Shown here one piece after another: positions 2,873 through 60,501 of a stretch of DNA of 60,501 nt. The stretch's first letter is position 1. Every line of letters begins with the position of its first letter. The notes beneath the pieces are model-generated. The model made no database searches. It was not told the origin of the DNA and saw nothing but the letters and a program-made list of their open reading frames with translations. This stretch comes from a virus (taxonomy: Duplodnaviria > Caudoviricetes): the IMG/VR virus record IMGVR_UViG_3300027996_000034, positions 1-60,501 of that record; one strand, 5' to 3'. The position numbers and the translations under genes were made by a program.

Positions 2873-2902
2873 ATTATATGCTTTTTGTTATAAAAAGTTT
2901 CA
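2873..2902 (-). promoter_or_regulatory. Putative middle promoter TGAAAC-N16-CATATAAT
   Basis: One of 8 sites with identical spacing. Confidence 0.75.
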
Positions 2903-2914
2903 ATAAATAATATT

Positions 2915-22903: not shown

Positions 22904-22933
22904 ATTATATGATGAAAATATTATTTGGATTCA
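22904..22933 (-). promoter_or_regulatory. Putative middle promoter TGAATC-N16-CATATAAT
   Basis: Matches the motif class. Confidence 0.6.
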
Positions 22934-33339: not shown

Positions 33340-33813
33340 TTACTTAATTGTTTTGAAAAAATCTTCGGTTATTATTTTGAACTCCCATCCTTTTTTATTA
33401 CAGAATGCTTCAGCAAATTGAATTTTGCACATATTAGTAACATACATCTCGTATGCATATTTATAATTCTTAACAGACTTAACAGTCTTTCTTTTAGGTT
33501 TTTTAGGTTCTTTTAATTGAGCAGATGGCTTTATTTCGATTAGGTATTTTTTACCGCTAGACAGTTCTATAAAATAATCTGGAAAGTATTTATGTTCCTT
33601 TCCATCTAAACTATTTATATATGGGACTGTAACTGGTTCAGAAACCCATTTAACAACATCTAAAGTAGATTCACAGTACTTACAAAACTTATATTCCCAC
33701 GATGATCTATAAATTATAGGACCCTTTCCTATGTATTTTTTGCATTCGTTTATTGGGAAATAACCTTGCTTAAACTTTGATTTCCTCTTTGGCTTATTGT
33801 TTTTTATATTCAT
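33340..33813 (-). CDS. gp4: Head completion nuclease (TnsA-like)
   Basis: IIYRSSWE, WVSEP..PY, YFPDYF, LIEIKP, WEFKIITE. Confidence 0.92.
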   Translation of the reverse strand: MNIKNNKPKRKSKFKQGYFPINECKKYIGKGPIIYRSSWEYKFCKYCESTLDVVKWVSEPVTVPYINSLDGKEHKYFPDYFIELSSGKKYLIEIKPSAQLKEPKKPKRKTVKSVKNYKYAYEMYVTNMCKIQFAEAFCNKKGWEFKIITEDFFKTIK

Positions 33814-34212: not shown

Positions 34213-34242
34213 ATTATATGACGTAAATTTGATAAAGTTTCA
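34213..34242 (-). promoter_or_regulatory. Putative middle promoter TGAAAC-N16-CATATAAT upstream of gp55
   Basis: Exact motif class. Confidence 0.75.
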
Positions 34243-34246
34243 AACT

Positions 34247-35792: not shown

Positions 35793-36578
35793 TTATATAT
35801 CTTTGATTTTCTTTTGAATAATATATTCGTTGTTGATATCACCAGCTCCACCGTTAGAAAATGCTTTAGCTTCGTTCTTAATTGTTCCGATAACATTATA
35901 ATTTTCGAACAAACCATCGTCAAGCATTCCATCAACTGCTTTTTTAACACCAGGCGATTCTTTATGATCCATATAATCGTCGAATATTATTAGGCCACCA
36001 GGATTAACTGTTGCTTCATAGTTTTTAAAGTCTCGCTCAACCATATGTTTTGCATGTGATCCATCTATAAAGAATACATCAGCACCACCTGCCTTTTCAA
36101 TTGCAGCACAAGATTCTTTAATGATTTTAGGGTTATCTGATAGTCCAACAAATTTTTCTAAGGTTTGACCTTCGCTGATATATTTTGCTGTGTTATTATC
36201 GAACATTTTTTCTTGACCGGATTTAGCTTTGAATGGATCGATAGAAATATGAGATTTACCTTTTTTATTTTGAAGCATTAAGCACATAGATCCTCCACAA
36301 AAACTTCCAATTTCAGCAAATGTTTTATAGTCTTCTCCGAGCATTTCTGATAATGGATATGTTATATGAAAGTGATGGTGAAACGTATTTCCTTCCATAT
36401 CTTCACTTATTGATTGAACCATTTCAGAAGATTTCTTATATGATGGATGTTTAAGAATATCAGATTCTGTAAACATTTTAGTAGAAGATTTACCTTCATT
36501 CAATCCCCATTGTTCTACATCAGGGAATTGTTTATCATGCATTTCATTAAGAAAGTCTTTAAATGATAGTAATTTCAT
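35793..36578 (-). CDS. Class I SAM-dependent methyltransferase (Methyltransf_24-like) with capsid-targeting-like leader
   Basis: FAEIGSFCGGS, ISIDPF, VFFIDGSH, VNPGGLIIFDDY; leader MKLLSFKDFLNE. Confidence 0.85.
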   Translation of the reverse strand: MKLLSFKDFLNEMHDKQFPDVEQWGLNEGKSSTKMFTESDILKHPSYKKSSEMVQSISEDMEGNTFHHHFHITYPLSEMLGEDYKTFAEIGSFCGGSMCLMLQNKKGKSHISIDPFKAKSGQEKMFDNNTAKYISEGQTLEKFVGLSDNPKIIKESCAAIEKAGGADVFFIDGSHAKHMVERDFKNYEATVNPGGLIIFDDYMDHKESPGVKKAVDGMLDDGLFENYNVIGTIKNEAKAFSNGGAGDINNEYIIQKKIKDI

Positions 36579-46179: not shown

Positions 46180-47310
46180 TTAGAATAACGATAATGTATA
46201 CGCTAAGCTTCGGTTTAATCTTGGCATTCCGGATGGAATAACAATTCTATTTAATGGTTCGAGTATAAACATTTCAAATTGTCGTTCAATATCTATTTTT
46301 GGTGCTAATTGATATGGATATTCTCCTGGCAAATAACCAAATACATCACAAAATTGATCATCTGCATAATACCAACGAATTTTATCGCTTGTTTTTACAA
46401 GGTCAAAATTATTTTTTTGTGGTGAATTATTGACTAAATAGTTATGATACGCACCAGCTCGAACATGTATTGGACATCCTTTAGCGAGTTCAAATTCGTT
46501 TGTATCATTTAATACAAATTTATTGTAATCTCCGATTCTTCGATTAGATGATATTTGTTCTATATCGGCTAATTTGAATTGAGTCTTAATATCTTTAAGT
46601 ACTTGAGTTAATTCAGCAACAACATCGTTATCTAATCTATCTTTTGAAAATAGAAATTTTACGATATCAGTTAGTTTATCTCGACAGAAAGCCGGGGTTG
46701 ATGATTGTATAATTTCTAAACCTTTAGTCGATATGTATGTAAGAGGATCATAAGTTTTACCATCCTTCCAAACAATATTTTGAACATATTTCTTTTTTGA
46801 AACCCATATTGCATTATTTGCTATCGTCTCAAGTTCAAAATCTAAGAAGTTTTCAGAATTATAAGAATTTGCATAATCAGAAAGTACTTTTTTAATATAG
46901 TCTGCTAATCGATGTTTGTTAATTTGTAAAATGAAGTCTGTTATTTCGCCATCCCATTTACAAGATTCCATAACCTCTTCGAATACGATATATCCTGAAT
47001 CCGTATCTGTATATTTCCATACATGTCGTTTGAGCGGCTTAACCTCACTTAATCCCATTGTTTTATGAAGTGCAAAATCTTTATGCCAAAATTCTTTGAA
47101 GTATTTTTCAACACAACGTTCAGTATATTTTATTGCATCTTGGCCTTGAAGAGTTACTGTTTCAGCGATTACTGTGCTTCTAAAATGGAACCAGTCATTT
47201 GCAAATGCTCCATAAATAGAATTAATGCACAACTTTATAGCTTCTTGTAAGTTGAAACATCTAAGGCTTTCCTTTTCTAGACTCTGTATTTTAAGTTCTT
47301 TTTCAGTCAT
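46180..47310 (-). CDS. gp43: Family B DNA polymerase, C-terminal subunit (fingers half, palm motif C, thumb)
   Basis: KLCINSIYG, TLQGQ, YTDTDS, KKKYV, KGLEIIQSSTP. Confidence 0.93.
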   Translation of the reverse strand: MTEKELKIQSLEKESLRCFNLQEAIKLCINSIYGAFANDWFHFRSTVIAETVTLQGQDAIKYTERCVEKYFKEFWHKDFALHKTMGLSEVKPLKRHVWKYTDTDSGYIVFEEVMESCKWDGEITDFILQINKHRLADYIKKVLSDYANSYNSENFLDFELETIANNAIWVSKKKYVQNIVWKDGKTYDPLTYISTKGLEIIQSSTPAFCRDKLTDIVKFLFSKDRLDNDVVAELTQVLKDIKTQFKLADIEQISSNRRIGDYNKFVLNDTNEFELAKGCPIHVRAGAYHNYLVNNSPQKNNFDLVKTSDKIRWYYADDQFCDVFGYLPGEYPYQLAPKIDIERQFEMFILEPLNRIVIPSGMPRLNRSLAYTLSLF

Positions 47311-47311
47311 A

Positions 47312-48052
47312 CTAAGCTTTGATTGCTAAATTTAATGCAATTTTAGTGCTTGAGTCAACTGAATCCATTACGAGTTTATTTTGACATACTGAAATTTCAT
47401 ATGATTCTTTATCAATTCTAGAAAAGAATGATTTGAAAAGGTTAATTTCTGGATGGTCTGATTCGCTAGAATCATCTACAACAATATCATATGTATCACC
47501 AGCAATATGAACACCTTTATTATCTGAATATATCTTGAACAATTCATTTTTATCTAATGTTATTAGATTATTTAGTTTTGTTAGTAATTCATTTGAAAGG
47601 TGGAAGTTAAAAACTTCACCATCGGTTCCGAATGCTGCATCTATTTGAACGTCAGACATTGTGGTAAACCCTAAAGAAACATCCGCACAATGCAAAGTTA
47701 TTTGTAATGATTGGTCATTAATAACCATTTTCTCTGCAAAAAACTCTCCGGCATCTTCATAATAATGTAGTTCTCCACATAATTGGTGAGGATCAAAATA
47801 CTTTAAGCAATCTATTAATTTCTGACCACCAAAAAATGATATTTTAATGTTAGGAATTTCCTTTTCATCGAATTCAAATACGGAGTCTGTTGGTATCTGA
47901 GTAACTTTCGCAACATCTTTAGATGGAATGAACGAGTTAGAATATAATCGATCTCCAGATAAGTTTAAATAAATAGCTGAATCCATTAACAGCAATTTCT
48001 TAACCATAGTTGATAATGGTCCTGGATGAATTTTTGAAATAGTTAAATGCAT
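47312..48052 (-). CDS. Probable sliding clamp (gp45-like)
   Basis: 246 aa acidic two-domain alpha/beta pattern, adjacent to the polymerase; no strong motif. Confidence 0.55.
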   Translation of the reverse strand: MHLTISKIHPGPLSTMVKKLLLMDSAIYLNLSGDRLYSNSFIPSKDVAKVTQIPTDSVFEFDEKEIPNIKISFFGGQKLIDCLKYFDPHQLCGELHYYEDAGEFFAEKMVINDQSLQITLHCADVSLGFTTMSDVQIDAAFGTDGEVFNFHLSNELLTKLNNLITLDKNELFKIYSDNKGVHIAGDTYDIVVDDSSESDHPEINLFKSFFSRIDKESYEISVCQNKLVMDSVDSSTKIALNLAIKA

Positions 48053-48064
48053 ATGTTTTTATTT

Positions 48065-48096
48065 ATTATATGCATTTATTCGAAAGAAGTTTCAAA
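48065..48096 (-). repeat. 32-nt direct repeat / middle promoter, copy downstream of the cassette
   Basis: ATTATATGCATTTATTCGAAAGAAGTTTCAAA, identical to 50226..50257. Confidence 0.9.
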
Positions 48097-48098
48097 AG

Positions 48099-49118
48099 TT
48101 ATTCACTCTGAATTTTCAACGATGCTTTATGGATTGACTCATACATTGATTCAACCAATTCTTCAGTTAAGCCATGTTCTTTACCTTGTGCTATTCGACT
48201 TGTAAGGATTTGATTCCATCGATTCATCTGTAAAGGTAAGATGTTGTTATCTGATTTGTATGTTCCAATTTGTTTAGCAACTTGCATTCTTTCTGAAAGT
48301 GTACTTATCAATAATGAATCTAACTCATCGACTTTTCTTCTGTAGGGTGCAAGACCATCATCTTCAACTTCATGTTTTCCAAATTTTAATCCATCAACAA
48401 GGAATCTATATTGAGTTGGTGTTATTTGTTGTTCAGCATCAGTTATTGCATCTTCTGGATTTGAATGAACCTCAACCATCATACCATCAGCACCGAAATT
48501 TATTCCGCGTTGCGTGACGTGTTGAATTAACATTGGATTTCCAGCAATATGTGAAGGATCAATTAACATAGGAATGTTAGGCATCTTTCTTTTGAATGCA
48601 ACTGGAACGTGCCATCCAGGCATATTTCTATATTTTGTTTTTTCGAATGTTGAGAAACCTCTGTGAATTGCACCGATGTTTTTAACGCCTTTTGCCTGTA
48701 ACCTTTCAATTGCACCAATCCAAAGTGATAAGTCAGGATTCATTGGGTTCTTTACATAAATTGGAATGTCAGTACCTTCAAGTTCTTCAGCTATAGCTTG
48801 CATACTAAATGGATTTCCACTTGTTCTAGCACCAATCCATAACATATCAACTCCATGTCCAATAGCTAATTTTATATGAGCTGGTTCTGCAACTTCACAA
48901 CAGATTTTGAATCCGAATTTTTCTTTGACATCTTGAAGCCATTTTAAAGCATCTTCACCATGTCCTTCGAATGCACCTGGATTAGTTCTCGGTTTCCATA
49001 CTCCTGCTCGGAAATAATCTATTTTGATATTTTGTTTCGATAACCCAAGAGCAACTTTCATAAGTTGCTCTTTAGATTCAGCTGAACAAGGTCCAGCAAT
49101 ATGTGTGAATTCTGTCAT
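48099..49118 (-). CDS. Bifunctional DAHP synthase (I-beta) / chorismate mutase (AroQ-type, C-terminal)
   Basis: IAGPCSAES, RAGVWKPRT, WIGART, VKNP, IHRGF, DPSHIAG, MVEVH, DAEQQ; C-terminal RRKVDELD..LSERM..IGTYK..IHKAS. Confidence 0.93.
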   Translation of the reverse strand: MTEFTHIAGPCSAESKEQLMKVALGLSKQNIKIDYFRAGVWKPRTNPGAFEGHGEDALKWLQDVKEKFGFKICCEVAEPAHIKLAIGHGVDMLWIGARTSGNPFSMQAIAEELEGTDIPIYVKNPMNPDLSLWIGAIERLQAKGVKNIGAIHRGFSTFEKTKYRNMPGWHVPVAFKRKMPNIPMLIDPSHIAGNPMLIQHVTQRGINFGADGMMVEVHSNPEDAITDAEQQITPTQYRFLVDGLKFGKHEVEDDGLAPYRRKVDELDSLLISTLSERMQVAKQIGTYKSDNNILPLQMNRWNQILTSRIAQGKEHGLTEELVESMYESIHKASLKIQSE

Positions 49119-50179
49119 TACGCTTTAGGTTTTAAGTAAGATTCTAATCTGTTTTCTAAGAATGCGTATTCAAAGTCAAGATCTTTCATTTCAGGATTTT
49201 CATATTCTTTAATAAAGTCAGTTCCATATCCAGCGATATCAATATCATATTTAGGATCCATGAAACTTGTTTTACCTTTTGCAACTCTAGCGATGTTTTT
49301 AACATCAGCCCATAGTTCAAGTAAATTACCTTCGAACTTTTGAGATAAGTAAGTTTCAACAATCCATAAGATGTAAGGTGTTGGATGTGTTCTTCCTGTT
49401 ACTTTGAATTTTTTGATTCCATGAACTTCATTATAGTAAGCCATAGATTGTGGAGCAATAAATCTTGAACGAGTCCATTCAACAGGATTTCCAATGTTTC
49501 TTATTTGTGTACAGATACCCATTGGATATCTTTTGAATTTAGAAGCATCTTTATCAGTTTTACATTGAGCATGTTCGTTGTAACATTGAACTCGATCAGC
49601 ACAATCAGTAATACAATATTCATTAGCAAGTAATTCAGTTTCGATTCCTAATGCATCGCCTTCTTTTTTCAAAAGAGCTAAGGATTCGAAGTTACGATTT
49701 AATGCAACATCCAAACAAACTTTATTGATGTTTGGGTTTCTTCGTTTTAATTCTCTTAATTGATAAGGAGTATTTGCACGATAAATTGTAGAGATCTCAA
49801 CTGGAATATCAGAATATTCAGCAATTATTTCCATTGACAAAGGATGTGCTACTGTTAATCTTCCAATTCCAATTCGTTTAAGATATGCTAGAGTTTCTTT
49901 GACATGTTCAATATCAATTTTAGCTTTATCAACGATTGGAGTATTGTCTGTGTAGTTAACGAGAATTCCTGCTTCATTGTAATCTTTTACTGATTGTTCG
50001 AAAGATTCTAGTGAAACATCTGGAACTCTAAAGTCAGGACGAGCAGATCCAAAGATTTTGATTTTTCTGATAGAGCCGTATACTTCATGTACTTGGACTT
50101 CAGAATATTTTTCGTTCAATTCCTTAAATTTTGAAGGAAGAACTGGATCATAGTTTGATCCGACCATTAGTTCGATCAT
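49118..50179 (-). CDS. Peptidase U32-family protein (putative Fe-S hydroxylase)
   Basis: TIM-barrel pattern LTVAHP..VEIST..LNRNF..ELLANEYCITDCADRVQC..C..FIAPQ..GIKKFKVTGR (cf. U32 KIEGR). Confidence 0.75.
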   Translation of the reverse strand: MIELMVGSNYDPVLPSKFKELNEKYSEVQVHEVYGSIRKIKIFGSARPDFRVPDVSLESFEQSVKDYNEAGILVNYTDNTPIVDKAKIDIEHVKETLAYLKRIGIGRLTVAHPLSMEIIAEYSDIPVEISTIYRANTPYQLRELKRRNPNINKVCLDVALNRNFESLALLKKEGDALGIETELLANEYCITDCADRVQCYNEHAQCKTDKDASKFKRYPMGICTQIRNIGNPVEWTRSRFIAPQSMAYYNEVHGIKKFKVTGRTHPTPYILWIVETYLSQKFEGNLLELWADVKNIARVAKGKTSFMDPKYDIDIAGYGTDFIKEYENPEMKDLDFEYAFLENRLESYLKPKA

Positions 50180-50225
50180 AGATATTATTTTAAGTGTTAA
50201 AGAGTTATTTTAAAAACTTATAATG

Positions 50226-50257
50226 ATTATATGCATTTATTCGAAAGAAGTTTCAAA
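50226..50257 (-). repeat. 32-nt direct repeat / middle promoter, copy upstream of the cassette
   Basis: Identical to 48065..48096; contains TGAAAC-N16-CATATAAT. Confidence 0.9.
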
Positions 50258-50260
50258 GTT

Positions 50261-52123
50261 TTAATTGATTTCGCATGCTCCTCCAGCACAAGCCAATTCT
50301 CCAGAAAGATTAGTATTATCATCGATTTCTACTATATCTTCAAGATCAACTTGCTTTAATGATTCCAACATATGTTCATAAACATCCTTAGTAATATCTT
50401 CAAACGGTGTTTGTTTATATTCAGCACCATCATATGGTAGAACTGATAAACCGTTATAATATTCTCGGTTATTCCACATCCATTCTCCAATTTCTGGCCA
50501 TTCTTCCCATTTTAATGAAATTGTTGCAGAGACATTATGTGTATTAGAACCTTTTCTATGTCCAGATTTTACCCATTCTTTTGATATCTTTTTAACTCGT
50601 TCTAATAAGTCTATTGGCTTTTCTGTTCTAAGAATAGAACCTGCAGGTGCTTTTTGTGGAACTTCTATTACCGCGGTATCCAATGGTCTATAATAATCAT
50701 CTTCTACTAATGTCGGATGTTGATTTGCAAGGTAATGATATATTGATTCATTTTTACCAACACGCAGTCGTCTAATATAATAATCGTTATGCCATGCATG
50801 TATTCCAGAAGATGTTCCTAAAGTTAAAGATGTTGTTCCGGCCGGTTTCACGGTTGTGCACCTTGCTGCGGAATTAATTCCAATAAGTTTAGCCACTCTA
50901 GCATTTTCTCTTTTTACTTTATCTGCAGCTTGTTTAAGATCATATTTTAAAACAACCCCACTACCAATACCGGTCATAGATACACCTATTAATGCTTCCC
51001 TTTCTGTGGTATCGTTCCATATTTCTCGAAGATAATGAAAGTCAGTATAACCTGCTTGAAGCGTTCCTATAAATGCGGCTGCTTTTACTCGTTCATTTAA
51101 ATCTTCCTGCGATTCAATATCACTTGCATTAACTTCGCAAAGATTGCAAAATTGATAAGGTCTTAGAGCGATTTCACAGCATGGGTTGGTTCCCCAATCT
51201 TTGTCGTTATTGAAATAAATTCCAGGCTCACCGGATCCGCTATATTGTACACGTTCCCATAATTCCATAAAGAATTCTTTTGTGATTTTATGTCTCATTA
51301 AACATGCAGAATTGTTTGCTCTTGCTCGTTGGCCGTTTAATTCCCACCAGTCACCAGCTTTACATTGGATCATTTGTAAATCATCCGCGCTAAATAAACT
51401 AATAAGTGCAGCCCTTCGAATTCCACCAGCTAAAACCGCATCAGCAATATGACAAACAATATCGTGAGTTTCGATTGTTGTAAGTTGATCTCCATCAATT
51501 TTAGATTCAAGTAATCCTTTAATTTTAACTAAACATTCTTTTAACGGTTGTGGGCCAGGAGCTTTGCCGCCTGAAGTTACAAGTTGTGCACCTTTAGGTC
51601 TAATATCTGAATAATCAAAACTAATTCTAGATGATCGTCTATCACCTAAATATGATTTCATTAAAACTTTTATTGCATCAGCCCATCCTTCAATAGAATC
51701 GCCGATTAAAAACCTCCGTTGTCTTTTAGAATATGGTTTGTTTATTTGTGGTAATTTTATTACATGATGTTTCTGAACAGAATATCCAACACCAGTTCCA
51801 CCTAATAATAAGAACATTGTCTCGCTAAACGAATCAACACTATCTATTGGTAGATAAGCACAGTTATAAACTCGATTCGGTGATATTTCAATAGGTTTGC
51901 CACCGAATTGAAGACTTCTCATTGATGGCAAAACTTTTTTATCATATACAAATTTATAGTTCTCTTCTATCTGTTCAGTTAAATCCGGATACCGCTTTAT
52001 ATGCATTTTTTTATTTCTAGTAACTAATTCTTCCCACGTTTCACGTCGATTAAGTTCTGTCAAATATTTTGCATATTTCATATGTACCGTGATGTCTGAT
52101 AAAATCTGATTAGATATCTCCAT
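50261..52123 (-). CDS. nrdJ: Class II (adenosylcobalamin-dependent) ribonucleotide reductase
   Basis: LPSMRSL, NCAY, GGIRRAALI, TNPCCEI, CNL, VKPAGT, C-terminal CAGGAC; no beta subunit gene nearby. Confidence 0.88.
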   Translation of the reverse strand: MEISNQILSDITVHMKYAKYLTELNRRETWEELVTRNKKMHIKRYPDLTEQIEENYKFVYDKKVLPSMRSLQFGGKPIEISPNRVYNCAYLPIDSVDSFSETMFLLLGGTGVGYSVQKHHVIKLPQINKPYSKRQRRFLIGDSIEGWADAIKVLMKSYLGDRRSSRISFDYSDIRPKGAQLVTSGGKAPGPQPLKECLVKIKGLLESKIDGDQLTTIETHDIVCHIADAVLAGGIRRAALISLFSADDLQMIQCKAGDWWELNGQRARANNSACLMRHKITKEFFMELWERVQYSGSGEPGIYFNNDKDWGTNPCCEIALRPYQFCNLCEVNASDIESQEDLNERVKAAAFIGTLQAGYTDFHYLREIWNDTTEREALIGVSMTGIGSGVVLKYDLKQAADKVKRENARVAKLIGINSAARCTTVKPAGTTSLTLGTSSGIHAWHNDYYIRRLRVGKNESIYHYLANQHPTLVEDDYYRPLDTAVIEVPQKAPAGSILRTEKPIDLLERVKKISKEWVKSGHRKGSNTHNVSATISLKWEEWPEIGEWMWNNREYYNGLSVLPYDGAEYKQTPFEDITKDVYEHMLESLKQVDLEDIVEIDDNTNLSGELACAGGACEIN

Positions 52124-52126
52124 AGT

Positions 52127-53509
52127 CTATAATTCTTTTTTTAATTTTTGGATCTCAATTTCAAGATCTAAATGTTTGCGTTTATGTTTTTTCCGTTCTG
52201 TATATAATTCTGTTAAGATTGATTTCATAGCACTTGGTTTTTTATCAAATACTGCTCCAGTAACTGCTACTATTTTAGTTGGGTCTTTTCTATATATTTC
52301 TAATTTTTCTTGGCTATGTTCTTTCTTTATGAAGGATTCAGGAGATATATTTATTTGTCTCATTATTGATGGGTATAGAGAAGCAAAATCAAAACACGCA
52401 GCGCCTTTAAAGAATCCAGTTTCTGGTTCTTTAACATATGCACCTTCATATCCTTGTCTTTCTCCAGGTCTAATAAATTCATCGGCTACGACACAATCTC
52501 TTTCATAATATTTTTTCCAAAGAAATGCTTCAGTAATATTAACTGCAGATGTACATTTGTACATTGATATGTTGCACAATACTGATACTGATAACACCGC
52601 ATTTATTGTTGCAATTTTTTCATGGATTTCTGTTACCAACGCTGAATCAATCGCATTATAGAACACGTATTTGTCATAATCATTCTCGTAGAGTTCCTGT
52701 AAGGTACCATTGTATTTAATCTTATTAATACCTAATACTTGTTTTGCAACGAAATCTAGTGTATTATTTTCTTTAACTGCAACAGTTCTATCAAATTGTC
52801 GATAAATTTGGAGATAGTCCATCATTGCAATATGTAATGGAATCATATCTCGATTAACTTTATTTGATACACTGGCTTTTGCACAATCAATACCAAGTTT
52901 TCTACATCGATTATAAATGTATTTCCAGTCAAATCCTATGAAATTCCATCCAGTTACAAATGCCATGTGTGGTAGCATTTTAGTAATGAATGTGTATAGC
53001 ATATTATATTCATCATCAAAGCAAACATATTTAAAATCCCAATCACCATAATCTTTCATATGGTTTCGAACATCATCAAATATTTTTTTTTGTTCTTCTG
53101 GTGATATTGGCTTCCATCCTAATACAGCAACTTGTTTATTTTGCATTGCAATTGACATACATGTGATTCGTTCTCTAGCAACCTCCGGGTTTGGAAAACC
53201 ATCTATTACCTCAGTCTCAATATCAACCGAATATATTTTTGGAAAGTTTAATGCAGATAATTGTTCAATATCAGAATTGTTATGAATAAACTCATAGATA
53301 GACCATTTGTTTAAATACTTTGCTCGAACTTTTTTAACAGGCTTACCATCCCAATTTCTATATTTAGGATCTTTATCTTTATCTGTTTCCGAACATATCG
53401 CCCAATTCTTTACATCTTCAATTTTATAATCATTTACTTTTACATCACCATTTTCATCGAAGTATGATATTCTTAAATCATTAAATCTACTTTCTATATC
53501 TAATATCAT
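52127..53509 (-). CDS. gp43: Family B DNA polymerase, N-terminal subunit (3'-5' exonuclease + motif A)
   Basis: DIETE, TGWNFIGFD, YNAID, YEGAYV, FDFASLYPSIM. Confidence 0.93.
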   Translation of the reverse strand: MILDIESRFNDLRISYFDENGDVKVNDYKIEDVKNWAICSETDKDKDPKYRNWDGKPVKKVRAKYLNKWSIYEFIHNNSDIEQLSALNFPKIYSVDIETEVIDGFPNPEVARERITCMSIAMQNKQVAVLGWKPISPEEQKKIFDDVRNHMKDYGDWDFKYVCFDDEYNMLYTFITKMLPHMAFVTGWNFIGFDWKYIYNRCRKLGIDCAKASVSNKVNRDMIPLHIAMMDYLQIYRQFDRTVAVKENNTLDFVAKQVLGINKIKYNGTLQELYENDYDKYVFYNAIDSALVTEIHEKIATINAVLSVSVLCNISMYKCTSAVNITEAFLWKKYYERDCVVADEFIRPGERQGYEGAYVKEPETGFFKGAACFDFASLYPSIMRQINISPESFIKKEHSQEKLEIYRKDPTKIVAVTGAVFDKKPSAMKSILTELYTERKKHKRKHLDLEIEIQKLKKEL

Positions 53510-54246: not shown

Positions 54247-56742
54247 TTATTCTCCCAATGCTTCGATATCCCATTGAATTCTTTCTAATGGATCTTCATC
54301 ATTTGTTCTGTTCTTCTTCACCCAATCAACAAGACCTCTTTCCATAGTAGCATTTTGTGCCATATCATATGAATGTTTCCATCCATCGCCGGAAGCCATA
54401 TCTTCAATCCATTGATCATATTTCTTTTGATTCCATTTTACTGGCTTTATCTTCTTAGCATGGGGTCCATTACCTAAAGTTGATTTGATTGCATTGTAAT
54501 GATTCGGGACAAATACATCCACTGCCCAATCTTCGTCTCTTTTATTACCATTCCAATACTTAATCTTCTTTCTGAATCTTTTTAATTCGTAATCAGCATT
54601 TTCAATCTTTTCTTTTCTAGTAATGCCACCTCGTTTATATCCAAATGATAACTTCATATCATCTAATATATCTGGATCTGTTTCGAAATGAAGGTCTTTA
54701 ATATCAACATTATCATATTGGCCTTCATTAACTGATTCTTCATTAACATTAACTCCCTTTCTTTTAGCATACTTTTCAACATCTCTTAAAAGACCTAGTA
54801 GTTTATTTTTATCTAAATCTTCTTCATCGTTATTCAGTTCTTTTTGAAGATTATTCATTAAACTCTTCATGTATTTTTTTACACCGGAATCTAAATCACC
54901 CTTATCTATGTTGGTTTGTATAAGGTTAACAAGTTCTAAAACATCTTCCTTTTTTAGATTTTTAGCAGCTTGTTTATCCTTGAACTTCTTTTTATAGTGT
55001 CGAACTACGTCTCCCCAACTATCTCCAGGAAAGAACGCTCCTGGACTGACAATCATGCCGGGACCCATCACAGCAAATATTACACCTGCCATTAACCCAA
55101 CTCCTCCAGCTAAAGCTAATAAAGGTTGCCACCATTCAAAACCTTCATTAACTGAGTCATGAGCTTGTATTGAAGTTTCGATTGCTTCTTTAGCCTTTTT
55201 AATATCACCATTAAAGTATGCTTTTGCTAATTGATACAAAACTATATCTGATGGTATTTTACCAGATTTTCCAATTTTAGAAATTTCATCATCACCTTTA
55301 CCTTCATTAACTGATTCTGTTATAGAGTTACCAGTCTTTTTTACTTGATGTCCATCCATTGCATAGAATCGCATATCTTGGAAGTCAACTAAATATTGCT
55401 CATCCGATTCATAGCTTATTAATAGTCCTTTTTCACCTTTCTTAATAGTCATTTTAGTTCCAAAATAATCGAAGGTTTTTGTTGGTGCAATCCACTCAAC
55501 CTCTTCGTATTTTTTACCTTCATTAACTGATTCTTTCAAATCTGTTAATTTTATTACACGTTTCTTACCATCGAAAGAAACAAAATAAGATTTATCATCT
55601 GCTGCCGTTAAGTGATATCCGAATGATTTACCCCATACCTCTTTTGCCTTTTTAAGATCTGAGCCATAAAAATATTTTTCAAGACCCGATGTACTTTTTA
55701 TTGTTTTAGGAACTTTTACCTTGCCTTCATTTAAAGATTCTCCTACAAATGCATTGAACTTCAAAAAATTGTAAATATTTTTTGCTTGTTTTTCATTTTC
55801 CTCTTCATCATCAGTTAATTCGCTTGATGCTGCTAAATCACCAGAACCAGTTTCCTGAGTTGAAAATTCTGCTTGAGTTCCAGGATTTCCAGGCAATGAA
55901 ACATTACCCATTCCATTAACACTTCCTGGAGTTGCCATTGCATTATTTTCTTCAATCGCATATCTCATAGCTTCTGCATATGCAATTGCTTCTTCAAGAT
56001 GTTTATTTGATGATTCTTTTACCGCCATACCACCATTCTTTTTCATATATTTCTTAACGGTGGATCTCCATTTTGTATCAACATTTGTAACTGTAACTCG
56101 ATTACCAACTTGATCGCCTATACCAATTGCAGAATTTTCAATATCTAAATCAAATTGACGTGCACTTTCTTCATCAGGGAATTCAAATATTACACTTAAA
56201 CCTTCATCGACCGATTCATCAAACAATGTTTTTGCACGTGGAAATGTTAAAGATTTACCAAGTTCTCTATCATGATCCTTTTTCATCTCTAGATAATTCC
56301 AAGGAGATATCCAACCAGTTTCTTGCGCTAATTGAACTGCAAGATCAAAGGGTTTCATAGGCTTTGATAAAGTAACATTGAATCTAGGTGAAGAGTATCT
56401 ACCTTCCATATCACCTTCCACTATTTTATATTTTCCTTTTGGGATAACTTTAATTCGTTCGAAAGGTTTTCCAATTCCAACTATACTTACCGTTTTATGA
56501 TCTTTGTATCTTTTTTCTGCGTTCTTTTTTATTGGATCATCATATGCTGCTTCATCTACCGAATCTTCTAATTTATTTGGTAGCGTTTCTTCTGGAGTTT
56601 CTGCGTAATCTTTCAAATCGGCTTCTTTCTTTTTGGATAAATCTCTTATTTTCTGATCAACCGTGGATGCATCAACTTCACCTCGCTTAACTGCTAAGGC
56701 TAGTCCGAATAATTTCCGTTGAGCTTTTGATACTGCTGGCAT
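54247..56742 (-). CDS. Modular putative internal-head polyprotein: DUF3008-like N-terminus, ESVNEG repeats, embedded copy of the MCP N-arm
   Basis: MPAVSKAQRKLFGLALAVKRGE start; seven (E/D)S(V/L)(N/D)E(G/A) motifs; residues 265-302 are 26/38 identical to MCP residues 43-80. Confidence 0.7.
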   Translation of the reverse strand: MPAVSKAQRKLFGLALAVKRGEVDASTVDQKIRDLSKKKEADLKDYAETPEETLPNKLEDSVDEAAYDDPIKKNAEKRYKDHKTVSIVGIGKPFERIKVIPKGKYKIVEGDMEGRYSSPRFNVTLSKPMKPFDLAVQLAQETGWISPWNYLEMKKDHDRELGKSLTFPRAKTLFDESVDEGLSVIFEFPDEESARQFDLDIENSAIGIGDQVGNRVTVTNVDTKWRSTVKKYMKKNGGMAVKESSNKHLEEAIAYAEAMRYAIEENNAMATPGSVNGMGNVSLPGNPGTQAEFSTQETGSGDLAASSELTDDEEENEKQAKNIYNFLKFNAFVGESLNEGKVKVPKTIKSTSGLEKYFYGSDLKKAKEVWGKSFGYHLTAADDKSYFVSFDGKKRVIKLTDLKESVNEGKKYEEVEWIAPTKTFDYFGTKMTIKKGEKGLLISYESDEQYLVDFQDMRFYAMDGHQVKKTGNSITESVNEGKGDDEISKIGKSGKIPSDIVLYQLAKAYFNGDIKKAKEAIETSIQAHDSVNEGFEWWQPLLALAGGVGLMAGVIFAVMGPGMIVSPGAFFPGDSWGDVVRHYKKKFKDKQAAKNLKKEDVLELVNLIQTNIDKGDLDSGVKKYMKSLMNNLQKELNNDEEDLDKNKLLGLLRDVEKYAKRKGVNVNEESVNEGQYDNVDIKDLHFETDPDILDDMKLSFGYKRGGITRKEKIENADYELKRFRKKIKYWNGNKRDEDWAVDVFVPNHYNAIKSTLGNGPHAKKIKPVKWNQKKYDQWIEDMASGDGWKHSYDMAQNATMERGLVDWVKKNRTNDEDPLERIQWDIEALGE
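54722..55533 (-). repeat. Dispersed 17-nt in-frame repeat GAATCAGTTAATGAAGG
   Basis: Exact at 54722, 55301, 55517; one mismatch at 55142; one-mismatch copies also at 37786, 38317, 38614. Confidence 0.9.
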
Positions 56743-56744
56743 GG

Positions 56745-57323
56745 TTATTTCATATTTTTTAAGTAATCTTTTGCTAATTGAGACAATACTGATAATGTAG
56801 CTTTCATATCATCCATATGGTCATATTCACCAGCTTTATATACTTGCTCTAAATAATCTTCCATATCTTCCATTACCGTATCGGAATTCTTCCAAGTTTT
56901 TTGGATATTAGATTTACCTTCATTAATCTCAGATTCATCCATTGCAATTGATTCAGATAAAGATGGTATATTTCTATATTTTGATTCATTAACTTCAGCC
57001 GGTAAAGAATCTCGTTTGTTTATCATTTCAAATACTCTTTGGCCATATTTTGAAAGACTATAATATGTAGTTCCTTTCTTTTCAAATGTTGTGAAAAACT
57101 TTTGATTTCTTTTAAACCATTTCGCTTTATTAACTTTTGCACCTCCACGGTCCTCTTCAAGTCTAATTAAATGATTATGTAAATCTTCTTCAGTTACATA
57201 ATTTTTTCCAACGTATTTAATAATAGTATCTCTAACATTTGCACCGTTTTCATTTATACGTATTCTATTATAATCACCGTACTTTCTTTTTACTTGGTGA
57301 CGTCCTTCATTAAGTTCTTCCAT
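56745..57323 (-). CDS. Hypothetical late protein with LNEG/VNES/INEG motifs
   Basis: 192 aa; late motif at 57343. Confidence 0.7.
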   Translation of the reverse strand: MEELNEGRHQVKRKYGDYNRIRINENGANVRDTIIKYVGKNYVTEEDLHNHLIRLEEDRGGAKVNKAKWFKRNQKFFTTFEKKGTTYYSLSKYGQRVFEMINKRDSLPAEVNESKYRNIPSLSESIAMDESEINEGKSNIQKTWKNSDTVMEDMEDYLEQVYKAGEYDHMDDMKATLSVLSQLAKDYLKNMK

Positions 57324-57351: not shown

Positions 57352-59046
57352 TTACTGACTGTGACTTAATTCATTTTTTAATTGGTCATAAAATTTATGT
57401 TCAGCAGTTGGTGTTAATTTTTTAAATTCTTTTTCATTATCAGCGATCAAAGCATCTCTTACTTGAGTTGCACTTATGTTATTAGAATTTCTTTTAATTT
57501 CTGATGTTTGAAATTCTGGTAATACATTAGCTTCCTTACCATACAACTTAATCATACGATTATAATCTGATATTCTATCACTTCCAGTGCCCCATAGTAC
57601 AGGTTCATATTCTGGGCGTAATGCATTTAAAATTTGATCTAAAAACCCAGTTTGAGATTCCTTAACGGCATCAATAAATTTATATTGTTTTGCTATATCC
57701 ATCCAAATTTTTAAAATAGTCTCATTTTCAAATGGTGTTTTTTTACCACTTTTAGATCTAACTTGGATAACAACCACTGGTAAATTATTCTTAGCATGTA
57801 ATTGTCGAAGAACTTTAATATGTCCAAGTGTTGGTGGTTGGAATCGACCAACTAATATATTAACCGATTGTTTACCAGGTTCTGAATGTTCTAAACTTAA
57901 TTTACCTTCATATAAATTAGATTCTAATAATGCTCGTTTTTGATATTTGCCATAGTAATAATCTTCAAATGTCGGGATCGATTCCTTAGGTTTTGGTTTA
58001 TCAATGGTTCGATCAGATATCATGGCGATGATTTTGTTTATTTCGAATTTGGTATTGTTATCTATTAATATAGAAGTTTTCTTACGTTTTTTAGTAAATG
58101 TCCCTAAGAATAATTTGAATATTTCTTTATTGATTTGAGATTCTTTAATCCATTTAACGGCATTTTCATCAGTAACATTTTTTAAATTTATTCCGAAGTC
58201 TGGAATATCTTTTGCAAAATCAGGTCCATCTAAATCTTCCATACCATCATATTTAGATGCATTTTTAGACATATATTTAGCATAAAGTGCACTAATTAAA
58301 TTCAATATCCTATGGGCCTTATCTTCACCCTTAGGTTTGAATTTATCAAAATTTACCGTGTTCATAAAGGCTAGAACATCTTGTAATGCTATAGAATAAG
58401 TATCTGATGCATTCTGATCTTTAGCTTTAGTAGCTTTAATCATCGGATTTAGTATTTTAGTACTAACCGTTTCGTGTAATCGATCTAGGAATTTCATAGT
58501 TAAACTCTCTGATATGTTTTTGTTCGCTTTAAGTATATCATATATATCATTATTGCCTTTATCTAATGATTCGAGAATATCATCTATTTGATTCAATTTT
58601 AATCTCCCGAAATATATAACTGATATGCCATCTAAGTTTAAATCACTAGCCCATCTTTCTAATACAACATCATCTTCAATAAATCGTATTTTAGAAGATG
58701 ATTCGATAACTCGAATTTCCTCTAATAAAATTTTGTTAGTTTTTGGAGAATATCTAAAAGCAAATCTATAACTTTCTGGTATTAAACCAATTTTATACAT
58801 ATCTAAAATTTGATGTATTGTTCTATCTATCGGATTTTCATATATGCTTTGCAAAGATCTATCTATAATTGATATTTCTTTATTACTCGTTCCCTTAAAA
58901 TATTTTAAGTTACCTTCAACTATTTGTGCATGTAAAGATGTATCCGAAGATTTCTCTTTAACGACGATAAACTTCTTCAAAAGGCCATGAATATAATCAC
59001 GGCCTTTTGAATTGTATATGGTTAGTAAGTCGTTTATTTGTCTCAT
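57352..59046 (-). CDS. Protein with C-terminal HIGH-family nucleotidyltransferase (cytidylyltransferase/NMNAT-like) domain
   Basis: GRFQPPTLGH, GSDR, ISATQVR; N-terminal ~370 aa unassigned. Confidence 0.8.
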   Translation of the reverse strand: MRQINDLLTIYNSKGRDYIHGLLKKFIVVKEKSSDTSLHAQIVEGNLKYFKGTSNKEISIIDRSLQSIYENPIDRTIHQILDMYKIGLIPESYRFAFRYSPKTNKILLEEIRVIESSSKIRFIEDDVVLERWASDLNLDGISVIYFGRLKLNQIDDILESLDKGNNDIYDILKANKNISESLTMKFLDRLHETVSTKILNPMIKATKAKDQNASDTYSIALQDVLAFMNTVNFDKFKPKGEDKAHRILNLISALYAKYMSKNASKYDGMEDLDGPDFAKDIPDFGINLKNVTDENAVKWIKESQINKEIFKLFLGTFTKKRKKTSILIDNNTKFEINKIIAMISDRTIDKPKPKESIPTFEDYYYGKYQKRALLESNLYEGKLSLEHSEPGKQSVNILVGRFQPPTLGHIKVLRQLHAKNNLPVVVIQVRSKSGKKTPFENETILKIWMDIAKQYKFIDAVKESQTGFLDQILNALRPEYEPVLWGTGSDRISDYNRMIKLYGKEANVLPEFQTSEIKRNSNNISATQVRDALIADNEKEFKKLTPTAEHKFYDQLKNELSHSQ

Positions 59047-59047
59047 T

Positions 59048-59521
59048 TTATGAGGTCATCGTAGTAAACCAAGACTCATCTGCTGAAGCTGAAAAATTCT
59101 TTTTGATATATTTTTCCATATCTTTGTATCCTTCAGGATCTTTCTTTTGCATAATATCTAATACCTTTCCTAATCCCATTTGCATGACTTTATCGTCAAA
59201 TTCTTCATGGTCTTCGTTTTTAGCAGCCTCTTCAATTTCAATTTCGATTTCTTCTTCACCTTCAGATGAATCTTTCATTTTTTTAGCAAGCGTAGCGGTT
59301 TTCTTTTTCTTTGCTTTATTTTCAGCTTCTTTCTTTCCATCTTCAGCTTCTGCATCTAATTCTTCTGGTGGTGTAGTTGGGCCTTTTGAAGCATCAGCCA
59401 TATCATCAGCTAATTGTTCTTCGTCATCTTTAGGTGCACCCATTTTGTTGATAGTTTTTTCAATTTCTTTAGCAGTTTTTGATTCTGTTAAGAATTGATC
59501 ATACGACTTAATGTGTTTCAT
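59048..59521 (-). CDS. Acidic/basic low-complexity protein with capsid-targeting-like leader
   Basis: MKHIKSYDQFLTES; late-type motif at 59545. Confidence 0.7.
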   Translation of the reverse strand: MKHIKSYDQFLTESKTAKEIEKTINKMGAPKDDEEQLADDMADASKGPTTPPEELDAEAEDGKKEAENKAKKKKTATLAKKMKDSSEGEEEIEIEIEEAAKNEDHEEFDDKVMQMGLGKVLDIMQKKDPEGYKDMEKYIKKNFSASADESWFTTMTS

Positions 59522-59572: not shown

Positions 59573-60501
59573 TTATGTACATGTACAATCATTGTATGAT
59601 AGACCTGAATATGTTTTTGGGAAAGTTAACGAAAGTGTATCATCTATCACATATTGTTTACCGGCAAATACTGGAGTAACACTTACTAATTGATAACACG
59701 ATGCACCTACTTTGAAATATTTAGAATAGTTTCTGCTTTTCAAATCTCCTCTAATTGCAATTAATGCACCATCCAAACATCTAGAGATATTAGTAAACAT
59801 TTCCACTTGGCCTCCCTGTGGCACAATATTCATACCACCTTCACCGCCTTTAACTAATTCATGCATATCTGTTACTTCATCAGATGGAATATCTGATGCA
59901 TTCTTTAAAGATTCTTTTGCTGGAGCCGATATTATTTGTTTGTTAGGATCAGTTAATTCGTCTTTCATTAAAGCATTATCTTTTGCATCAGCTTTTGCCT
60001 TTTCTTCTTTCTGTTCCTCTTTTGCCTTTTCTTCTTTATGTTCCTCTTTTGCCTTTTCTTCCTTAGGATCGTCTTTTGGCTCTTCTTTTGGATCGTATTT
60101 TGGCTCTTCTGGCATATCAGGTATTTCTGCACCAATTTCTTCTAAATCTGACATAACATCTTCAAGATCGTTCACCAAATCATTATATATTGCATGTGCT
60201 TCGTAATCTTTTGGATCCATTCCTTTAGAGTATTCTCTTTGAAATACAGCCAATGCTTGATGTGCAGCGATATATTCATTTTGTAAAGCTTCAACATCTC
60301 CGACTGGAGGGCCTTTAGGCTCCTCTTTTGGATCTTCCTTAGGATCGCCTTTAGGCTCCTCTTTTGGATCTTCCTTAGGATCGTCTTTAGGCTCCTCTTT
60401 TGGATCTTCCTTAGGATCGTCTTTAGGCTCCTCTTTTGGATCTTCCTTAGGATCGTCTTTTGGCTCCTCTTTTGGATCTTCTTTGCTCTTTGAACGAGCT
60501 T
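59573..60501 (-). CDS. Hypothetical protein with PKEEPKDD repeats, 5' end outside the window
   Basis: The frame of track ORF 59573..60253 stays open to the window edge (..SKEDPKEEPKDDPKEDPK..). Confidence 0.75.
   Translation of the reverse strand, partial: ARSKSKEDPKEEPKDDPKEDPKEEPKDDPKEDPKEEPKDDPKEDPKEEPKGDPKEDPKEEPKGPPVGDVEALQNEYIAAHQALAVFQREYSKGMDPKDYEAHAIYNDLVNDLEDVMSDLEEIGAEIPDMPEEPKYDPKEEPKDDPKEEKAKEEHKEEKAKEEQKEEKAKADAKDNALMKDELTDPNKQIISAPAKESLKNASDIPSDEVTDMHELVKGGEGGMNIVPQGGQVEMFTNISRCLDGALIAIRGDLKSRNYSKYFKVGASCYQLVSVTPVFAGKQYVIDDTLSLTFPKTYSGLSYNDCTCT
60313..60481. repeat. 36-nt coding tandem repeat, ~4.7 copies
   Basis: Unit CTTTAGGCTCCTCTTTTGGATCTTCCTTAGGATCGT at 60313, 60349, 60385, 60421, 60457 (partial). 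Confidence 0.92.

Follow-up and report, generated by a model that had tools for sequence, protein, structure and literature searches.

A phage operon joining a U32-family enzyme to a DAHP synthase-chorismate mutase, a candidate prephenate-dependent route to DNA base hydroxylation

The U32 gene and its coupled DAHP synthase-chorismate mutase

The virus record IMGVR_UViG_3300027996_000034 of IMG/VR (Duplodnaviria; Caudoviricetes) was analysed over its full 60,501 nt, referred to below as the window, with attention centred on two adjoining genes of the minus strand, the strand that carries all long open reading frames (ORFs) around them. By ORF call, the upstream gene (49118..50179) encodes a 353-aa protein of the U32 family and the downstream gene (48099..49118) a 339-aa DAHP synthase-chorismate mutase (DAHPS-CM). 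A preliminary description, made from the sequence letters, had proposed that the two genes are coupled through an overlap at 49118, and this is borne out, base 49118 being common to the U32 stop codon TAA and the DAHPS-CM start codon ATG (TAATG in the sequence). DAHPS-CM is translationally coupled to the U32 gene, and the two constitute a single operon behind a putative phage promoter. The identity proposed for the downstream product also stands, with matches to PF00793 (DAHP_synth_1; 1.6e-39, profile positions 18-253 of 270) and PF01817 (CM_2; 1.2e-19, profile positions 1-79 of 80) that place a DAHP synthase domain at residues ~4-236 and an AroQ chorismate mutase at ~259-337, both of full length as in fusions of a type I-beta DAHP synthase with an AroQ chorismate mutase; the NCBIfam families for DAHPS/CM match below their equivalog cut-offs (177 vs 267.75). 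The nearest named homologs are bifunctional DAHPS/CM enzymes of Bacteroidota (48-53% identity at 98-100% query coverage), and the names among the best 120 matches include Prevotella, Prevotellaceae, Bacteroidaceae, Porphyromonadaceae, Marinifilaceae and several genera of Flavobacteriaceae. This degree of identity suggests that DAHPS-CM was captured from a host of the Bacteroidota type.

The only Pfam match of the 353-aa protein is to PF01136 (Peptidase_U32), at 22.6 bits (E 7e-5; cut-off 22.4) in the protein scan and at 18.7 bits, under the cut-off, in a six-frame scan; the protein also matches phrog_5757, annotated as 'peptidase' (9e-62), and a precomputed PF01136 match is present in 28 of its 39 listed homologs (P0002-P0040). 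An AlphaFold2 model, built on 40 homologs and with a mean pLDDT of 94.5, has the TIM-barrel fold of the solved U32 protein Mk0906 (5d88), which is the top structural match both by Foldseek (E 4.3e-9) and by VIA-align (Z 18.2, root-mean-square deviation 3.2 A, 226/247 residues; the next row, of generic TIM barrels, has 13.4). Because 5d88 leads both comparisons, the U32 assignment of the preliminary description holds by the predicted fold, being weak by Pfam sequence score alone. A word-indexed search returned 40 homologs, and an exhaustive search against representatives at 50% identity returned 2335 at E<=1e-3, of which 1459 remain at 1e-10 and 639 at 1e-30; with few exceptions the family representatives are single-domain proteins of about 340-400 aa. 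No close relatives in viral contigs were found with the single protein as query, the loci described below having been recovered with the homolog alignment, and a search for longer proteins gave no fusion of U32 with chorismate mutase or ThyA, which is weak evidence. The sole longer protein found (P0041) is a 699-aa U32 homolog with an intein (PF14890); its C-terminal extein restarts at the first cysteine of the conserved cysteine motif, and there is no alignment for the residues equivalent to ~159-188 of the window protein.

The cysteines of the window protein are arranged as C189-x3-C193-x5-C199-x23-C223, with C189, C193 and C223 invariant and C199 at least 90% conserved across 40 homologs. 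As had been remarked from the letters alone, this spacing is unlike that of the characterised members, in which the motif is Cx6Cx15-16Cx3C (TrhP and RlhA of E. coli) or involves C169, C176, C193 and C232 (UbiU). When the family profile was compared by hhalign with RlhA, TrhP and UbiU, three of the U32 paralogs of E. coli (the fourth is UbiV), RlhA was the closest (E 3e-6, probability 88%, 198 columns), followed by TrhP (E 1.6e-3) and UbiU (E 5.9e-3, probability 6%). The alignment to RlhA ends at RlhA residue 260 and pairs C189, C199 and C223 with C169, C176 and C192; a passage of PMC5727448 describes C169 and C176 as essential for ho5C2501 formation, and C580 and C611, in the C-terminal region of RlhA, as essential too. 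Since the 353-aa phage protein is without this C-terminal DUF3656 region and its two cysteines, it is not an RlhA ortholog and represents a subfamily of its own, the nearest characterised relative being a hydroxylase of cytidine C5. Paired subunits of the UbiU/UbiV kind were not seen, a single PF01136 match being present in the 60.5-kb record, which represents ~17% of the genome by completeness estimate. From these comparisons, the phage U32 protein is predicted to bind an Fe-S cluster and to use prephenate.

Gene neighbourhoods of phage U32 enzymes

An alignment-based scan of IMG/VR provided 59 U32 loci, each with flanks of up to 10 kb, in which the neighbours were clustered and profiles scored at E<=1e-5; whole-record searches covered the records of 54 of these loci, 25 of them at least 90% complete (near-complete in what follows). 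The preliminary description had proposed as a check that phage U32 homologs should co-occur with chorismate mutase and nucleotide genes, and at many loci they do. Chorismate mutase lies within 10 kb of U32 at 23 of the 59 loci, in all 23 sharing its strand at a distance that never exceeds 622 nt, with 4-nt overlaps at eight of these loci (chorismate mutase with U32 in seven, DAHP synthase with U32 in locus L035). Five arrangements were encountered: U32 followed by chorismate mutase; U32, a homolog of RB69 gp49 and chorismate mutase; DAHPS-CM, a HAD phosphatase and U32 (L027, L028 and L042); three overlapping genes in the order chorismate mutase, DAHP synthase, U32 (L035); and U32 followed by DAHPS-CM, the order of the window and of locus L065. 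The three genes of L035 (1407-3380) stand directly upstream of DNA polymerase and are preceded by MazG-like and kinase genes; L035 has the appearance of an unfused version of the cassette in the window. In whole records PF01817 was matched in 23 of 54, and in 14 of the 25 near-complete ones. The single non-adjacent case among the 23 records with a chorismate mutase is G003 (191 kb, the record of locus L034), where the sole match lies at ~167 kb, ~130 kb from U32, in a 364-aa open frame of about the length of a DAHPS-CM fusion. Two chorismate mutase queries in tblastn, which is insensitive for so short a domain, found 11 records each among 50,697. When the U32 proteins are grouped at 60% identity, chorismate mutase is found in three of 24 lineages, the lineage of the window being a fourth. 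A linkage that recurs in different gene orders and fusion states would be hard to explain without a shared function, and the known prephenate dependence of U32 proteins supplies one.

The remaining neighbours point toward DNA modification. Within 10 kb of U32, any glycosyltransferase was found at 44 of the 59 loci, a TMK-like nucleotide kinase at 32, an NTP-transferase/kinase of the gp52/53 type at 29, a ThyA homolog at 25, a MazG/dUTPase_2-like protein at 20 and an arabinose-5-P isomerase at 18. At least one of six pooled DNA-modification families (either glycosyltransferase, NTP-transferase/kinase, ThyA homolog, TMK-like kinase and MazG-like protein) occurs in 17 of the 24 lineages, and in L029, L045 and L052/L058 the ThyA homolog is directly upstream of U32 or overlaps it. 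The ThyA family as a whole (PF00303) was matched in 23 of the 54 records, homologs of the RB69-type synthase being detected as positive controls. PF00303 goes unmatched in ten of the 25 near-complete U32 records; in six of the ten, ThyX is matched at another place in the genome, and the other four (G024, G039, G041 and G046) match neither. In G024, G041 and G046 the block reads dUTPase_2/MazG-like protein, TMK-like kinase, glycosyltransferase, U32 and DNA polymerase, and in G039 the order is U32, GT1, kinase, a DNA polymerase fragment and a second kinase; locus L010, in record G013, belongs to the same block group and has an additional GT47-like gene after U32, and it falls outside the four on account of a weak ThyX match. 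By analogy with T4-style pre-replicative base replacement, this is the gene set that would be expected for such a pathway, in which U32 takes the position of the base-modifying enzyme. Judged from gene content, the phage U32 clade appears to be embedded in clusters for 5-hydroxycytosine and glycosyl modification of DNA. At one lineage of marine type, a radical SAM/SPASM protein (L004, 6648-7589; the same cluster in L009) lies beside a block of glycosyltransferase, MazG-like, kinase and U32 genes and could represent a further anaerobic modification step.

U32 homologs at ~40% identity are also present in 222 records of isolate phages, the ten commonest name groups of which are all phages of Enterobacterales, and a homolog is found in Shewanella phage Thanatos-1 as well, where the paper on Thanatos names TH1_065 merely among the ORFs that were modelled. 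In Shigella phage Shf125875 the U32 gene is the ortholog of RB69 ORF050c and is located between a 'phosphoheptose isomerase' (gp51) and a 'thymidylate synthase' (gp48), and in Proteus phage Pm5461 an annotated chorismate mutase follows two genes downstream of U32. The cluster around RB69 gp48-gp51 makes arabinosyl-5-hydroxycytosine, the ThyA homolog producing 5-hydroxy-dCMP with flavin and O2, the source of its oxygen by 18O2 labelling (PMC13326640). In the same paper RB69p050 is labelled a 'sugar or heterocycle reductase' (its Table 1), a label based on 5d88 fold matches alone, and the words prephenate, chorismate and U32 are absent from its main text. A small protein of the RB69 gp49 type (76-79 aa, phrog_8601) directly follows U32, and in several Straboviridae stands between U32 and chorismate mutase (L001, 8158-8397; L013, L022, L023 and L057, about 11143-11379); it is a possible partner for U32. 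The idea that gp49 is a divergent chorismate mutase was discarded, as it gave no match to a chorismate mutase profile even at E 10 and forms a family of its own.

The distribution of the two enzymes over isolates bears on the question of oxygen. Of the 374 isolate records found to have a homolog of the ThyA-type synthase, 57 are of Acinetobacter phages and 20 of Rhizobium phages, and neither host name is among the ten commonest groups of U32-bearing phages, the smallest of which has three records. Whole-genome profile searches detected U32 in Shf125875 and Pm5461 and none in Acinetobacter phage fHyAci03 or Rhizobium phage RL38J1; in the Acinetobacter phage a phosphatase gene abuts the ThyA homolog, where the RB69-type phages have U32 and gp49. 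Acinetobacter and Rhizobium are obligate aerobes, whereas the hosts of the U32-bearing phages are facultative anaerobes. By analogy, this host pattern would fit a model of two routes, like that of TrhO and TrhP or of UbiH and UbiU-V.

Promoter-like repeats, mobility and setting of the operon

The operon is preceded by a 32-nt sequence (50226..50257, minus strand) of which a second exact copy (48065..48096, minus strand) lies upstream of a 246-aa ORF and the C-terminal half of the DNA polymerase. These are its only two matches in the window at up to three mismatches (none of 100 shuffles matched), and the similarity between the copies reaches 40 nt at 93%. On the coding strand the repeat reads as a TTGAAAC...CATATAAT element in which a spacer fixed at 19 nt separates TTGAAAC from TATAAT, and a loosened form of this pattern occurs four times in the window (2873-2903, 34213-34243, 48065-48095 and 50226-50256, all on the minus strand and all intergenic) where 0.95 were expected, with none of 100 shuffles giving four. 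The repeat is accordingly promoter-like by its composition, one copy probably serving U32/DAHPS-CM and the other the 246-aa ORF together with the polymerase C-terminal half; the four-copy motif may be an early or middle promoter of the phage's own. The preliminary description had the cassette bounded by an exact 32-nt direct repeat, and both copies are there, but as a duplicated promoter and not as a dedicated cassette end: the repeat belongs to the four-copy family and was for that reason rejected as a dedicated mobile-element end. A composite of the PeSL type was likewise set aside, no terminator-like stem-loop being reported at either copy. Among the four copies an identical spacer is confined to the two that flank the cassette, an indication that promoters have been duplicated or have recombined with each other.

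Two metagenome contigs support mobility of the cassette. In L066, identity to the window (98.4% at the nucleotide level) begins at 50241, inside the repeat, and extends over the 5' untranslated region and the first 63 U32 codons, while upstream of this shared allele are other genes and a diverged spacer in a promoter of the same type; the gene upstream of U32 there is an NTP-transferase/kinase of the gp52/53 family (E 6e-70). L065 carries the same pair with the same overlap, its U32 and DAHPS-CM being 67% and 63% identical to those of the window, and its downstream ORFs have no detectable similarity to the window. The arrangement resembles the shuffling of modules through promoters that is reported for T4-type phages (PMC2839356, PMC4122927). 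From these comparisons the cassette appears to be a mobile, promoter-bounded operon, in which an enzyme of the phage U32 clade travels with its own putative supply of prephenate.

As to the immediate surroundings, the cassette had been placed between nrdJ and clamp and polymerase genes. A class II-type ribonucleotide reductase is found upstream (50261..52123, minus strand; PF21995 and PF02867, weak; phrog_367, 3.8e-131), and the polymerase is confirmed, in two pieces: Pfam and PHROG matches identify the N-terminal half of a family-B DNA polymerase, with the exonuclease and the start of the palm, at 52127..53509 (460 aa, minus strand) and the C-terminal half at 46180..47310 (376 aa, minus strand). 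The halves meet at about PF00136 position 136/137 and are separated by ~4.8 kb with four genes, the ribonucleotide reductase, U32, DAHPS-CM and the 246-aa ORF (47312..48052, minus strand). The clamp is unconfirmed, the 246-aa ORF having zero matches in Pfam or PHROG; its candidacy as a sliding clamp is a lead from language-model comparison (score 0.93), in which it falls with clusters that have PCNA_N in 22% or gp45-slide_C in 10% of their members. Elsewhere the window encodes a T4-type portal, a prohead protease, a gp23-like capsid protein, a clamp-loader subunit, a UvsX/RecA homolog, a dUTPase, a DnaB-type helicase and an Mre11/Rad50-like pair. The capsid protein (27495-29201) is closest to that of a 462-kb uncultured phage (49.7%) and then to those of Prevotella Lak megaphages (34%), and the window probably derives from a very large phage, which may be a huge phage of a Bacteroidota host. 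The 462-kb phage (LR756500.1), the nearest by capsid, has neither U32 nor chorismate mutase, and is therefore uninformative on the rest of the window phage's genome. Also encoded are a RimK-like ATP-grasp ligase (22921-24381), a TnsA-like endonuclease (33340-33813) and a Methyltransf_24 protein of the methyltransferase fold (PF13578, 35793-36578). Of the genes considered as candidate partners, the ORFs at 54247..56742, 56745..57323, 59048..59521 and 59573..60499 gave no informative matches, and the 564-aa protein at 57352..59046 was rejected, its sole match being a C-terminal nucleotidyltransferase (NMNAT/PPAT-like) domain behind a 390-aa N-terminus without a family.

Interpretation and comparison with known systems

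Taken together, the coupled DAHPS-CM, the recurrent chorismate mutase linkage and the company of relatives in other phages make it moderately probable that the U32 protein is a prephenate-dependent, O2-independent C5-hydroxylase of pyrimidines for phage DNA, supplied with prephenate by its own operon. The substrate, which could be dCMP, dUMP, a triphosphate or DNA, is suggested by the neighbours in other phages, and independence from O2 by the host pattern and by kinship. In passages of PMC10990095, RlhA and TrhP are reported to hydroxylate C5 of C and U in RNA, and prephenate is given as the oxygen donor for UbiU/V and proposed as such for all U32 proteins. By the same chemistry, the phage protein would most likely bind a [4Fe-4S] cluster, take oxygen from prephenate and hydroxylate C5 of a pyrimidine deoxynucleotide without O2, most likely converting dCMP to 5-hydroxy-dCMP; the product would be phosphorylated and then incorporated into phage DNA, and the modified base glycosylated where glycosyltransferases occur, so that restriction is blocked. 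DAHPS-CM would meanwhile drive carbon through the committed step of the shikimate pathway and draw chorismate off to prephenate, so that host prephenate would no longer be limiting for the hydroxylase during genome-wide modification. That the cassette is such a self-supplied hydroxylation module for DNA pyrimidines and not a generic auxiliary metabolic gene for aromatic amino acids had been proposed before, and the support it gains here is strong, independent and comparative, coming from the chorismate mutase linkage, the modification clusters and RlhA as the closest paralog.

Several observations weigh against this interpretation. The Pfam match of the U32 protein is marginal, and the canonical fourth cysteine is absent, the invariant C193 lying in the first loop instead. 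Chorismate mutase is not nearby at 36 of the 59 loci and was found nowhere in 11 of the 25 near-complete records, and in seven of the 24 lineages none of the scored marker families lies within 10 kb. The 60.5-kb window, searched with Pfam and with partner-gene profiles built from 61 loci (ThyA through PF00303), has no match for ThyA, ThyX, GT_A, GT1, NTP-transferase/kinase, TMK-like kinase or MazG-like protein, nor were sugar-activation or dCTPase-like genes detected in it, and a 5-hydroxycytosine glycosylation cluster of the RB69/DLP3 type is not found in the window, which is a genome fragment. A passage of PMC10990095 states that no U32 protein has yet been given an in vitro hydroxylase activity. 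The ThyA homolog alone makes 5-hydroxy-dCMP (PMC13326640), and U32 is therefore dispensable for that product. Finally, the contrast between phages of aerobes and anaerobes comes from few independent clades and is not strict, since E. coli phage JS98 has a ThyA-type cluster and no U32.

The published label of RB69p050 as a sugar or heterocycle reductase (PMC13326640), a further point on that side, leads to the first of four alternatives, namely that U32 performs another step of glycosyl-hydroxycytosine synthesis, as such a reductase or as a helper of the ThyA-type synthase, and that chorismate mutase is linked to it for some other reason. The frequency of ThyA homologs within 10 kb (25 of 59 loci), adjoining or overlapping U32 in the loci named above, speaks for it as well, but the label derives from 5d88 fold matches only, the tight and repeated chorismate mutase linkage accords with prephenate dependence of U32 and with no role as a reductase, near-complete genomes without a ThyA or ThyX match have U32 together with kinase and glycosyltransferase, and both the window and L035 have U32 with DAHPS/CM and no sugar-pathway genes nearby. 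We regard this alternative as unlikely. About as unlikely is the possibility that U32 hydroxylates host or phage RNA (tRNA U34 like TrhP, or 23S rRNA C2501 like RlhA) and so tunes translation, with DAHPS-CM giving the prephenate. In its favour, RlhA came out closest when three E. coli paralogs were compared, RNA is the only nucleic acid on which the U32 enzymes treated in the passages cited act, and a supply of prephenate would be equally useful; the 353-aa protein is nonetheless without the region carrying RlhA C580 and C611, and its relatives stand among nucleotide kinases, dCTPase-like proteins, glycosyltransferases and DNA polymerase, not among tRNA or translation genes.

It is distinctly improbable that DAHPS-CM is a general auxiliary metabolic gene and U32 a mere neighbour, the enzyme serving aromatic amino acids or providing prephenate for a carboxy-SAM synthase of the CmoA type, as in phage S-B43. 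A passage of PMC12783734 does describe prephenate as co-substrate of a phage CmoA for 5-carboxymethylcytosine, and the window has the methyltransferase-fold protein (PF13578) at 35793..36578; this protein, however, matches no NCBIfam family, CmoA included, and no prephenate dehydratase or dehydrogenase was found among the window ORFs scanned. U32 and DAHPS-CM share one base and one promoter, moreover, the same pair recurs in L065 (67% and 63%) ahead of ORFs without detectable similarity to the window, and DAHP synthase and chorismate mutase adjoin U32 also in L027, L028, L035 and L042. Least probable of all is a substrate other than nucleic acid, such as a quinone precursor, or a true peptidase activity: passages of the literature on UbiU/V show that the family reaches beyond nucleic acids, and others recall that U32 was first named for a collagenase activity, but similarity to UbiU is the weakest of the three (E 5.9e-3, probability 6%), there is one U32 match in the window and no second, and the relatives sit among nucleotide and DNA genes.

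Returning to the prephenate-dependent hydroxylase, a wider proposal can be formulated, which we see as evenly poised between right and wrong: phage U32 proteins would be the first enzymes to hydroxylate DNA precursors with prephenate and without O2. They would do under anaerobic conditions what the flavin- and O2-dependent ThyA-type synthase does in air, and would be the sole base-modifying enzyme in phages that have neither ThyA nor ThyX. With its captured DAHPS-CM the window phage would rewire the shikimate pathway of a probably Bacteroidota host purely to feed oxygen into DNA, and recombination at a promoter common to several phage genomes would carry the unit from one to another. Among the RB69-type and other 5-hydroxycytosine phages, many have anaerobically growing hosts from gut or sediment. 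In RB69-type phages and others, cytosine was recently found to be replaced by 5-hydroxycytosine and its glycosides, for which a single synthase is known, one that requires O2 (PMC13326640). For RB69 gp50, a conserved gene of these clusters, comparison with the window and its relatives suggests a role, that of a U32 enzyme taking oxygen from prephenate. If this is true, the 'organic oxygen donor' chemistry described in passages of PMC10990095 would extend from RNA and quinones to DNA, and hypermodification of phage DNA in anoxic habitats would be explained; the U32 field would gain, for in vitro assay, an enzyme that is small, has a single domain, is expressed at a high level and acts on a simple mononucleotide, and DAHP synthase/chorismate mutase would be an auxiliary metabolic gene for DNA modification, not for amino-acid supply. 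In the full-text literature, with subscription papers and supplements not covered, no paper was found that links phage U32 to prephenate or pairs chorismate mutase with 5-hydroxycytosine, or that describes parallel O2-independent and O2-dependent routes with a U32 enzyme for a phage or for DNA, and among the matches listed none has hydroxycytosine and prephenate together. What is new would be the application of U32 prephenate-dependent hydroxylases to DNA precursors, coupled to a DAHPS-CM that appears to be captured.

Each element of the cassette has known counterparts. The type II bifunctional DAHPS/CM of Bacteroidota has the same domain order and a similar length (~354 aa, against 339 in the phage), but the phage enzyme is virus-borne and in an operon with U32, and the intermediate shikimate enzymes are not encoded beside its gene. 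In PeSL cassettes of T4-type phages (PMC2839356, PMC4122927), repeated promoters likewise flank accessory genes and coincide with breakpoints between related genomes, whereas the window repeats have the promoter half only. RB69 gp50 and its Straboviridae orthologs belong to the same phage U32 clade as the window protein, at ~40% identity over 82-84% of the protein; unlike it, they have a C-terminal cysteine-rich extension and a Cx10Cx5C loop, and they are accompanied by a free chorismate mutase or none, not by a DAHPS-CM fusion. RlhA (YdcP), the 5-hydroxycytidine synthase of C2501 in 23S rRNA, shares with the phage protein the U32 barrel and the stretches C..QCYxxHAQ and FKIxGR, and, so far as the cited passages describe its reaction, the same prephenate- and Fe-S-dependent hydroxylation of cytosine C5 is predicted for the phage enzyme. 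RlhA is, however, a protein of 653 aa with a C-terminal region that the 353-aa phage protein lacks, the fourth cysteine of the latter has moved (Cx3Cx5Cx23C), and its context is one of DNA precursor genes, that of RlhA being ribosome assembly. For the ThyA-type 5-hydroxy-dCMP synthase (RB69 gp48, DLP3 gp80), often the immediate neighbour of phage U32 and absent from the window, the same product and purpose are predicted, but this enzyme has an unrelated fold, binds flavin and obtains its oxygen from O2 (PMC13326640). The pairs TrhP/TrhO and UbiU-V/UbiH-F-I offer a parallel to such a division of labour, an O2-independent U32 route running beside an O2-dependent one that yields the same product; they act on tRNA and on ubiquinone precursors, respectively, not on DNA, and it is the same logic, carried over to DNA, that is proposed here for phage U32 and the ThyA homolog.

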